64,000 nt of DNA from a virus (lineage: Duplodnaviria; Caudoviricetes): positions 1-64,000 of the IMG/VR virus record IMGVR_UViG_3300020576_004053; one strand, written 5' to 3'. A program made the translations under genes and the position numbers. The notes below the pieces were generated by a model. It had not been told where the DNA came from. It did no database searches and saw nothing but the letters and a program-made list of their open reading frames with translations. Shown here piece by piece: positions 6,519 to 8,525 of this stretch (position 1 is its first letter; each line of letters opens with the position of its first letter).

Positions 6519-7550
6519 TTATCCTGTATATCGTATTAAAGATGCAAATGAAGATTGCATCCAATCATCCAACCGAGGGAAGGCTCCCATCATTTTACCG
6601 GTGATGAAGCATTTTGTCAACATAAGCTTGTTAAGCTCATGAATAGGGGCATTGAATTTTTCTAAGACGCTAATTTTTGTCAATCCCGACATTGATACTT
6701 CGTCGAGTCGCATGAGTTTGTAATTACGTTCAAGAATATGTCGTGACGCCAACAATTCATTTAATGTCTTTGATGGTTTCGCCAAGGCATCAACACGACG
6801 TTGGGCATGCGCCAAGATATCATCAATGGATACGGGTTGATCGGACGCCAACTCTGGAAAATATTTCAAGATGGTCTTGACTTGAAATCCGTGCACTCCC
6901 GGCACATTATCGGATGCGTCACCGCTGATCACCCGATACATCAAGAAATTGATCGGGTGCACTCCATAATCTGCGGTGATCATGGTTGGATTGTACATCT
7001 TCTTTTTCACCCCATTCCACACCGCAATATCGGTACCGGTAACTAATTGTAGAAAATCCTTATCGGTACTCATGATAATTGCCTTACCACCTTCATTGGA
7101 CACCACATGCTGCGCTAAATATGCAATGACATCATCTGCTTCAACATTATCTGCCGTGATTACCGTACAGGGAATGAATTGTAACAGATAATTCAGAATC
7201 TTCAGTTGCCACGCCATGGAGTGCTGCTCTTCATCCACCGTCTGGAAATCGTAGAAGCGGTTTAAACGCGTCTTAACCGACCGGTGTTCTTTATAGTCGC
7301 TGAATAATGCCCGTCGCTTCGTACTACCACCCATCCCATCAAAGCAAATCACTACACGTGTCGGCTTATGCATACGGATAGATGCGGCCAAACTCTGTAG
7401 GAATGCCGTGATGCCACCAATATGTTTACCTTCTTCATTCATTGTGCTAGTCGCCGCGAATGCGCGTATGAAGAGATTTAGCTAAAGACCATCTACTAAT
7501 AAAACTTTAGAGTTTTTATTAGTGATGGTCATTCCTCCGTAGGTATTCAT
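6519..7550 (-). CDS. 5'-3' exonuclease / flap endonuclease (T4 RNase H, PolI N-terminal family) with an in-frame TAG at 7482-7484
   Basis: Track ORF 6519-7442 has CFDG, YKEHR, EADDVIAYL, STDKDFLQL, GDASDNVPGV but lacks the first motif. The same frame upstream reads MNTYGGMTITNKNSKVLLVDGL*LNLFIRAFAATST. Confidence 0.9.
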
Positions 7551-8482
7551 GTTAATAACTCCGTAATTATAGTGTTTTTATCACACGATTCCCAATCTAG
7601 TTGCCATACGACATGATACGTCAACCCCGCATTTTTTGCAATGGTATCCTTCAGGAGATCTTTTTTCCAAATATCTACGGCATAACAATTTCTACATTTA
7701 TCAAAATAATCTTCATTATATTTACGTGGGTCCATATGAAAATATGTTCCGTGATACTCAACAACCATTTTTTTAGATGGAACGTATATATCATATTCTC
7801 TACCATCTATGAAATATGACCCTATCGTATCTGGGTAGATATCTTGAATCATAGTCAATAATTCAATTTCTCCCTTACTGTGATATGATACAACACATTT
7901 ACCATCTTTCCATTGTTGCAAGGTTTTTTCTGATAACATGCGTTTAGTTTCATCACTATGTTTAAAATCGGGAGGCAATGTTCTGCCCCTCGCAATTGCT
8001 GATTTGCTCATCTTCATTTTACTTTCTGCACTAAATACTCTATTAGAACTTGCTTTACTAATAGCATCTCTCATATAATCAGTGATTCCCGGCCATCCAT
8101 TGTTCCTTCTAGTTTCAATTGCCTTTTTTCTAGCGGATGGAGTGGTACACATTATACCATTGTTCTTCATATTATTGGCCGATATGGCACGTCTCTCATC
8201 TGAAGAATTTGCCCAACTTTCTAATTGAGATTGAGACATTTTTTGTTTAGTTTGTTCCGAATACTTCACTGGTTTAGAATTTCGTATTTTTAATCTGTTT
8301 ACTGACATTCTTTTATACGATATTTTTTTAATATGATCCATTCCATATTCTGTATACAAGTTTTTGCACATTTGCACATATTGTACCGACTTTGGTTTAA
8401 ACCCAACTTTTATTGCAAGTTGTGTAAGTGTCAGTATAGTATCATCTGATATGAATAATTCATATATTTTAGACAGGTCCAT
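7547..8482 (-). mobile_element. Free-standing endonuclease, NUMOD3-like repeats plus PD-(D/E)xK (Vsr/DUF559-like) domain
   Basis: YSEQTKQKMS, FSAESKMKMS, HSDETKRMLS repeats. C-terminal SKGE..., YDIYVP...VEYHGTYFH...D..K...VVWQ. Likely start ATG 8482 after GAGGA. Confidence 0.85.
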
Positions 8483-8490
8483 AAATACAA

Positions 8491-8525
8491 TCCTCGCTAT
8501 GCGATGTTCATATACATAGCGAGGA
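8491..8525 (-). promoter_or_regulatory. 11-bp hairpin sequestering the endonuclease RBS, TATGTAT motif in the 5' arm
   Basis: TCCTCGCTATG-13nt-CATAGCGAGGA. GAGGA lies 8 nt before ATG 8482. Confidence 0.8.

Follow-up and report, generated by a model that had tools for sequence, protein, structure and literature searches.

The window analysed here spans the first 64 kb of an IMG/VR phage contig that is 143 kb long (completeness 79%, GC content 44%), and in it the gene for a 5'-3' exonuclease (FEN) is interrupted by six bases, a stop codon and a leucine codon, inside its catalytic V-D-G-L-N segment. Comparison with related loci makes it quite likely that this gap is a natural stop-hop, i.e., a short translational bypass, within a mobile endonuclease cassette, where it would probably shield the target of the endonuclease. 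The gene belongs to a group of replication genes on the minus strand that encode, in order, a DNA polymerase, a gp32-like protein, RecA, a 72-amino-acid open reading frame (ORF), the endonuclease, FEN, a 54-amino-acid ORF and a DnaB-like helicase. The features at the endonuclease-FEN junction are as follows.

8482 to 7547, minus strand: endonuclease ORF of 311 amino acids (ORF call), from the ATG at 8482 to the stop TGA at 7549-7547.
7550-7548, minus strand: start ATG of FEN, overlapping the endonuclease stop as ATGA at 7550-7547.
7485..7550, minus strand: FEN ORF1, codons 1-22 (M...KVLLVDGL), the last of which is the take-off codon CTT at 7487-7485; the PF02739 match begins at residue 15.
7479..7484, minus strand: six-base gap, by direct reading the stop TAG (7484-7482) and the landing codon CTA (7481-7479).
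6519..7478, minus strand: FEN ORF2, from AAT (Asn, 7478-7476) to the stop at 6521-6519, covering the remaining N-terminal exonuclease domain and the C-terminal domain.

Codons 20-25 of FEN read GAT GGT CTT TAG CTA AAT, which is the conserved D-G-L-N with six added bases, and the nine bases CTT TAG CTA would encode one leucine if the gap were skipped. The TAG lies 66 nucleotides (nt) past the A of the start ATG and is followed by 319 open codons. PF02739 matched FEN across the internal stop (E 8e-33, above the Pfam cut-off) and PF01367 matched with an E of 1e-5, under its cut-off; both FEN domains were thus matched, and relatives in the PDB include the Pol I 5'-nuclease domain and T4 RNase H. 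The interrupted gene gave the only PF02739/FEN match in the whole 143-kb record. Gene callers report it as a 307-amino-acid product starting from an internal Met (ATG 7442). A megablast of the region against the phage collection gave no match, and a single-protein scan of IMG/VR for close relatives also gave none.

The gap site was classified in 186 related loci (designated by L numbers), which came from one unconstrained pattern scan and two homologue-based samples. The pattern scan of IMG/VR fixed only the conserved flanking codons and left the take-off codon and an insert of 2-30 nt free. Eighty-six intact relatives lack the six bases and read D-G-L-N, and HMMER alignments of FEN to Taq and mycobacterial Pol I require a two-residue gap at VDG. 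Because a 95% identical locus from another sample (L002) carries the identical nine bases, and because dozens of independent contigs carry variants at the site, the gap is not a sequencing artefact. Relatives whose FEN is only 50-55% identical have CTT TGA CTC, CTG TAG CTA, CTG TAA CTA, CTG TAG GTG or the five-base gap CTG TAGTG at the equivalent place. The pattern scan added ~24 contigs whose insert was exactly six bases long, all of them Leu-stop-Leu except for one Phe-stop-Leu. No sense codon occupied the stop position in any of the >25 six-base inserts, though the scan pattern permitted it. A protein two residues longer is therefore apparently not functional, and the hop product would be the functional one.

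The loci collected through the endonuclease contributed gaps of 2, 5, 7, 8, 10, 11 and 35 nt, bringing the total to 31 distinct combinations of take-off codon and gap, 2-35 nt long, every one at a single position. The results showed that a stop codon stands immediately 3' of the take-off codon in 31/31 gap types, with TAG, TGA and TAA all in use, and that in 26-27 of the 31 at least two of the three positions of the take-off codon recur in the triplet that precedes the resuming Asn (permutation mean 15.3, p<1e-4). The landing matches often involve positions 2-3 (CUG to GUG, UAC to GAC, AUG to GUG). Gaps that change the frame (2, 4, 5, 7, 8, 10, 11 and 35 nt) still resume at the Asn codon, and skipping the gap restores D-G-x-N in all gap types; comparison across the loci establishes this rule. 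One clade of 9 interrupted alleles retains Leu-stop-Leu while the stop itself varies among TGA, TAG and TAA. On the FEN tree, the interrupted state requires at least 9-19 changes.

Two endonuclease-bearing loci were unusual. One (L221:2430-2500) contains a 35-nt gap with the take-off codon TTG, the stop TGA and a strong CCCCCC/GGGGGG hairpin straight after the stop; it is closer in form to the bypass of phage T4 gene 60, and its landing triplet CAG is a poor match. In the other (L161:3320-3360), D-G-T-N is intact and a run of ten Ts three codons downstream throws the remaining FEN out of frame, which reflects either an assembly error or a slippage-type interruption.

We examined the codon differences on both sides of the gap among 48 unique interrupted alleles. 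Their synonymous share was 59% upstream of the gap (9 homologous codons) and 39% downstream, compared with 4-10% off-frame. Since variation of the synonymous type is found in both flanks, both FEN pieces are translated, each in its own frame, as the comparison demonstrates. The 13 codons from the gap to the first internal ATG show conservation at the protein level with many synonymous changes.

The mechanism we propose starts from the position of the gap between the Leu and Asn codons of the catalytic segment. Peptidyl-tRNA-Leu on the P-site CUU would meet UAG in the A site; ahead of release factor action, the tRNA would leave CUU and re-pair six bases downstream on CUA; and decoding would restart at AAU, giving the normal D-G-L-N protein. 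The preliminary description of this DNA had held that the ribosome repairs the insertion at translation, and the single site shared by the 31 gaps, the invariable stop, the landing matches, the use of all three stops, the frame-shifting gaps and the coding selection in both flanks now support it. The hop itself and its efficiency are what we infer from these patterns. An RF2-type +1 shift at CUU-UAG was rejected for this allele, in which the +1 frame meets TAA after one codon. CUU UAG CUA was reportedly among the original synthetic stop-hop examples. Synthetic stop-hops, in which nine nucleotides specify one amino acid, are known in E. coli (PMC5009743; 10.1101/2024.12.09.627546), and a 2016 review states that in-frame stop-hops were not known to occur in nature (PMC5009743). 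Our literature search found no description of a natural stop-hop nor of a bypass in a FEN gene.

Two candidate RNA signals lie upstream of the take-off codon.

7495..7523, minus strand: predicted 5' mRNA stem-loop (ACUAAUAAAAAC / GUUUUAUUAGU), from the fold of the identical L002 segment; its 3' arm consists of the V-L-L-V codons and ends 7 nt before the take-off codon.
7532..7538, minus strand: Shine-Dalgarno-like GGAGGAA, followed 2-3 nt downstream by ACCATCA, ~48 nt upstream of the take-off codon.

The stem-loop, able to re-form just behind the ribosome, probably aids the hop and, if it acts like the 5' stem-loop of gene 60, may push the ribosome forward. A comparable hairpin was stronger in interrupted alleles, with a mean minimum free energy of -11.7 kcal/mol vs -7.9 kcal/mol in intact alleles (p 1e-7), and at least 7 consecutive pairs were present in 33/45 interrupted vs 20/88 intact alleles; the hairpin is thus enriched, not universal. 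A best-stem test was used here in place of pair counting, as the 5' arm shifts by one codon between subclades and spoils an ungapped hairpin alignment. Compensatory changes in the hairpin were found between two interrupted alleles (L004 and L006). The nucleotides of GGAGGAA are kept among the interrupted alleles of the window's clade despite a differing frame, which gives Y-G-G-M-T-I-T here and S-E-E-S-T-I-I in L004, and because they are kept across differing reading frames, GGAGGAA and ACCATCA may act as a signal at the RNA or DNA level. A 10-nt palindrome, TTTAGCTAAA, was dropped from the model since it is not general among the relatives.

The endonuclease encoded directly upstream of FEN contains weak NUMOD3-like repeats in its N-terminal two-thirds and a Vsr-like nuclease domain at its C terminus. 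Its gene has a GC content of 33% vs 43% in the flanks. The protein matched PHROG 3339, "homing endonuclease", with an E of 4e-12. The Pfam NUMOD3 match was weak (E 8.5e-4, 19.6 bits vs a cut-off of 20.4), and PF07460 is present in two homologues. One homologue contains PF18741, and one was labelled Vsr by the Joint Genome Institute. In the family alignment, D231 and E242 are invariant and H249 is found in 9/10 sequences. A sequence search against the PDB gave no meaningful match and a fold search was required. The AlphaFold model (pLDDT 80) gave as best Foldseek matches the Vsr structures 1cw0 and 1vsr and the I-Bth0305I catalytic domain 3r3p, with a probability of 1.00, target TM scores of 0.53-0.69 and E values of 4e-3 to 5e-2. 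The nuclease domain is Vsr-like, with a predicted PD-(D/E)xK-type fold.

Just ten homologues of the endonuclease were found in a set of 5.8 billion proteins, and all that could be looked up lie between recA and FEN. Among ~60 further loci found by endonuclease similarity alone, the full-length homologues always have recA upstream and FEN directly downstream; of the partial matches (<180 residues, mostly the nuclease domain), 2/102 loci are near FEN. The distribution is patchy: on the FEN tree, the endonuclease must have been gained or lost at least 12-15 times. This patchiness, the low GC content and the fixed insertion slot support site-specific cleavage and homing as putative activities of the endonuclease. 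In several relatives (L212:3255-3300), the endonuclease ORF, with a conserved ...RFIEGI tail, overlaps the first ~10 FEN codons out of frame; the overlap in the window is ATGA only. Two ORFs at other loci proved to be something else: a 375-amino-acid ORF upstream of the interrupted FEN with CTT TGA CTC (L003:3742-4866) is unrelated to the endonuclease and DNA-methyltransferase-like (PHROG 56, E 1e-18), and an extra ORF in L027 is S24-peptidase-like.

The gap and the endonuclease are associated across the related phage genomes. None of the 80 loci chosen by FEN similarity is interrupted and none carries the endonuclease, whereas the loci chosen through the endonuclease comprise 46 interrupted and 17 intact ones. 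When endonuclease-bearing loci were grouped into lineages at 85% FEN identity, 17 of the 24 uniform lineages were interrupted and 7 intact, and two more were mixed. In phylogenetically independent pairs from the two unbiased samples, the gap changed in the same direction as the endonuclease in ~6.1, in the opposite one in 0 and did not differ in 1.9 (median p 0.03). A locus without the endonuclease (L107) and one with it (L212) share the gap and a replaced FEN 5' segment of ~65 nt, which is absent from intact relatives of the same cluster (L011-L013, at least 85% FEN identity). L002 lacks the sequence corresponding to window positions 8477-7588, and the first five and last ~40 bases of the endonuclease ORF remain there together with the gap. 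This remnant suggests that the endonuclease was lost after invasion, a course also described for MobA elements.

On the strength of these comparisons, which establish the link with the endonuclease, we propose that the gap would be part of a mobile cassette made up of the upstream free-standing Vsr-like/NUMOD3 homing endonuclease and, at least in some lineages, the replaced FEN 5' segment. The most likely role of the gap would be to disrupt the target of the endonuclease in the genome that carries it, an effect that the 50-nt insert of gene 60 has against MobA in T4; after invasion, the endonuclease would often be lost and the gap retained. The preliminary description had claimed that the endonuclease and the gap spread together, a view supported by the common slot of all full-length homologues, the 17/24 lineages vs 0/80 loci, the paired test, the segment shared by L107 and L212 and the L002 remnant; co-occurrence across related phage genomes, which it had named as a check, was found (17 interrupted vs 7 intact lineages, 0/80 among FEN-chosen loci). 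It had also placed an AT-rich endonuclease gene, ending in an ATGA overlap at the exonuclease start, ~65 nt from the 6-nt insertion, with which coordinates, GC content and alignments agree, and had taken the bypass to be partnered with a different nuclease family; by alignment and fold search, the endonuclease is indeed Vsr-like, not HNH.

Several observations weigh against a hop that shields the gene from the endonuclease. Synthetic stop-hops without stimulators are described as low-level (10.1101/2024.12.09.627546), which seems low for the sole FEN gene. Four to five gaps have a poor landing match (L222 AAA, L221 and L232 CAG, L212 ATA, L125 ATC), and an irregular tRNA encoded elsewhere in the record could help to read this UAG, but it cannot explain the family-wide pattern. 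As regards the endonuclease, adding loci selected for the gap weakens the paired test (median p 0.07), and 25/27 interrupted loci from the pattern search lack the endonuclease; such carriers fit loss after invasion but do not prove it. Seven endonuclease-bearing lineages are intact, at least two of them with the plain consensus (L126-129, L214/216). The endonuclease beside an intact consensus site indicates that the gap is not required for coexistence and is not the sole means of it, and these carriers weaken the suggestion that the gap protects its carrier from its own endonuclease. Other intact carriers have unusual take-off residues (DGMN, DGYN and DAMN), which, speculatively, might be alternative protection.

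Some of these observations would also fit a hop that is real and a gap that is regulatory, for example keeping the FEN level low or sensing release factor or tRNA, with the endonuclease merely preferring the slot. Most gap carriers lack the endonuclease, the gap persists in the clade of 9 despite substantial divergence, the consensus site is intact in some endonuclease carriers, and limited or regulated bypassing has also been raised for gene 60 (10.1101/2022.08.31.505936). We nevertheless consider a regulatory device rather unlikely, because the gap is strongly enriched beside this endonuclease family and arrives with a replaced 5' segment, and because diverse gap sequences and lengths at one phosphodiester position are expected of repeated selection at a nuclease target and needless for regulation.

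Readthrough or suppression of the stop, in which a near-cognate or phage suppressor-like tRNA would read UAG to give D-G-L-X-L-N with the flanking Leu codons incidental, accords with the in-frame gap of this window and with an odd suppressor-like tRNA encoded by the genome.

102597-102670 of the whole record (genome G000; L292:148-221), outside the window, minus strand: irregular tRNA, for which ARAGORN gives tRNA-?(Arg|Pyl) and an anticodon loop of 6 nt, CUCUAA.

With the C.U closing pair open, this tRNA would have the 8-nt loop CCUCUAAU. The gene is ~80% identical to phage tRNA-Trp genes and to the annotated tRNA-Sup-CTA of Aeromonas phage Akh-2, and its product may act as an amber suppressor, or its anticodon loop may be expanded. 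Expanded anticodon loops are said to enhance hopping in E. coli. However, relatives also use TGA and TAA, many gaps are not multiples of three, the stop is never replaced by a sense codon among >25 six-base inserts, and the codon after the stop is nearly always pairable by the take-off tRNA. The genome also has no overall excess of in-frame TAG joins (TAG 12, TAA 31, TGA 29), and all this makes readthrough an improbable explanation. Genome-wide reassignment of TAG was rejected, and a dedicated suppressor does not fit either, since TAG ends 15/125 long ORFs, TAG joins are not in excess, and the relatives contain all three stops and frame-shifting gaps. No tRNA genes were found within the 64-kb window. 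Elsewhere, the record contains a tmRNA gene (98815-99162; tag GTNTRLALAA) and 30 tRNA genes (101017-137710), among them one for a tRNA-Leu(UAG) that could decode the take-off CUU as well as the landing CUA.

A broken or split FEN, i.e., a pseudogene from endonuclease damage or a two-piece enzyme restarting at the landing codon or at ATG 7442, draws on the internal Met at which gene callers start the 307-amino-acid product and on the landing triplet GTG, a possible start, of two alleles (L004 and L006), but it is very improbable indeed given that protein-level conservation covers the 13 codons separating the gap from the internal ATG, that the internal-Met product lacks the conserved VDG Asp segment aligned to the N terminus of solved Pol I 5'-nucleases, that most landing triplets (CTA, CTC and CTT) are not start codons, and that the arrangement is kept across deep divergence in the sole FEN of the record.

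Upstream of the endonuclease gene, we observed the following additional features.

8551-8769, minus strand: 72-amino-acid ORF between recA and endonuclease/FEN, with no family match; ORFs of similar size (72-105 amino acids) occupy this position in many relatives (L002, L126-L131).
8492..8524, minus strand: perfect 10-bp inverted repeat (CCTCGCTATG ... CATAGCGAGG) followed by a T-rich run, between the 72-amino-acid ORF and the endonuclease start; kept in L002.

The inverted repeat is terminator-like, and it may end transcription of the 72-amino-acid ORF or restrict expression of the endonuclease. When all 143 kb of the record were scanned for further stop-led gaps whose landings match, 348 matches resulted, mostly out-of-frame noise, which are uninformative without homology data.

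Taking the loci together, we favour, on balance, the broader proposal that phage FEN genes host a natural family of stop-led "micro-bypass" elements, 2-35 nt long, that arise and are kept where a locus-specific homing endonuclease has its target and that ribosomes hop by re-pairing of the P-site tRNA. If true, these would be the first natural stop-hops and the second independent endonuclease-plus-bypass cassette after T4 gene 60, and their graded gap lengths could reveal the path by which minimal bypasses develop into long programmed ones. In 2022, the gene 60-type bypass cassette was called "remaining unique", though it has dozens of homologous copies in other phages (10.1101/2022.08.31.505936). 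If the hop is confirmed, skipping of 2-35 nt at a defined site would be routine for ribosomes in nature, mechanistic studies could draw on dozens of natural variants of take-off/landing pair, gap length and hairpin, and selfish endonucleases would have a general route to mark conserved codons while leaving the gene working. Because gene callers truncate such FEN genes, as with the 307-amino-acid product here, or misread their starts, these genes should not be annotated as pseudogenes.

Among known systems, the mitochondrial "byps" of Magnusiomyces capitatus (cited in PMC5009743) resemble the FEN gaps, as interpreted here, in that many short inserts are bypassed with imperfect, two-of-three pairing between take-off and landing. 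Byps differ in being mobile inserts of 27-55 nt spread over many mitochondrial genes, in having an A-site codon that is an unused sense codon, and in lacking an associated endonuclease. The synthetic stop-hops of E. coli (Weiss et al. 1987 and follow-ups, via PMC5009743) are like the proposed FEN hop in that a stop lies between two codons that match and a slow-to-decode stop in the A site drives re-pairing of the P-site tRNA. They are described there as engineered, unprogrammed and low-level, whereas the FEN gap is natural, conserved in many phage lineages, placed within the catalytic motif of a gene that seems to be required, and preceded by a predicted hairpin.

The present enzyme resembles I-Bth0305I, of the EDxHD family, and further Vsr-like homing endonucleases of phages in its predicted Vsr-like PD-(D/E)xK-type fold, its phage-borne gene and its probable target in a DNA-metabolism gene. 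I-Bth0305I is encoded in an intron, whereas the present protein is free-standing and carries NUMOD3-like repeats, and in place of a verified EDxHD motif it has D...E-x-[NH]-G-x-Y-[WF]-H. In some cassettes, Vsr-like endonucleases reportedly take the place of MobA and MobE (10.1101/2022.08.31.505936).

The closest parallel is T4 gene 60 and MobA (Bonocora et al. 2011, via 10.1101/2022.08.31.505936). In both systems, a free-standing endonuclease gene lies directly upstream of an essential DNA-metabolism gene, which a few dozen codons in, within a highly conserved segment, contains a stop-led non-coding gap with take-off and landing codons that match and an upstream stem-loop, predicted in the case of FEN. 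Both also show a replaced 5' homologous segment alongside the gap and lineages in which the endonuclease is lost and the gap kept, and loss of the endonuclease with retention of the bypass is reported for MobA/gene 60 elements (10.1101/2022.08.31.505936). The out-of-frame overlap of the endonuclease ORF with the start of the downstream gene in some FEN relatives has a counterpart in the 8-32-nt overlap of MobA. The systems differ in the interrupted gene (FEN here vs a topoisomerase) and in the nuclease (Vsr-like with NUMOD3-like repeats here vs HNH), and the endonuclease does not divide FEN into two ORFs. The FEN gaps are 2-35 nt long (6 here) vs ~50 nt in gene 60 (20 nt in one clade), and the short ones contain no take-off stem-loop within the gap. 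The FEN cassette shares no sequence homology with that of gene 60, and its bypass and protection are proposed from sequence comparison. The FEN cassette is thus an analogue, and not a member, of the MobA/gene 60 type.

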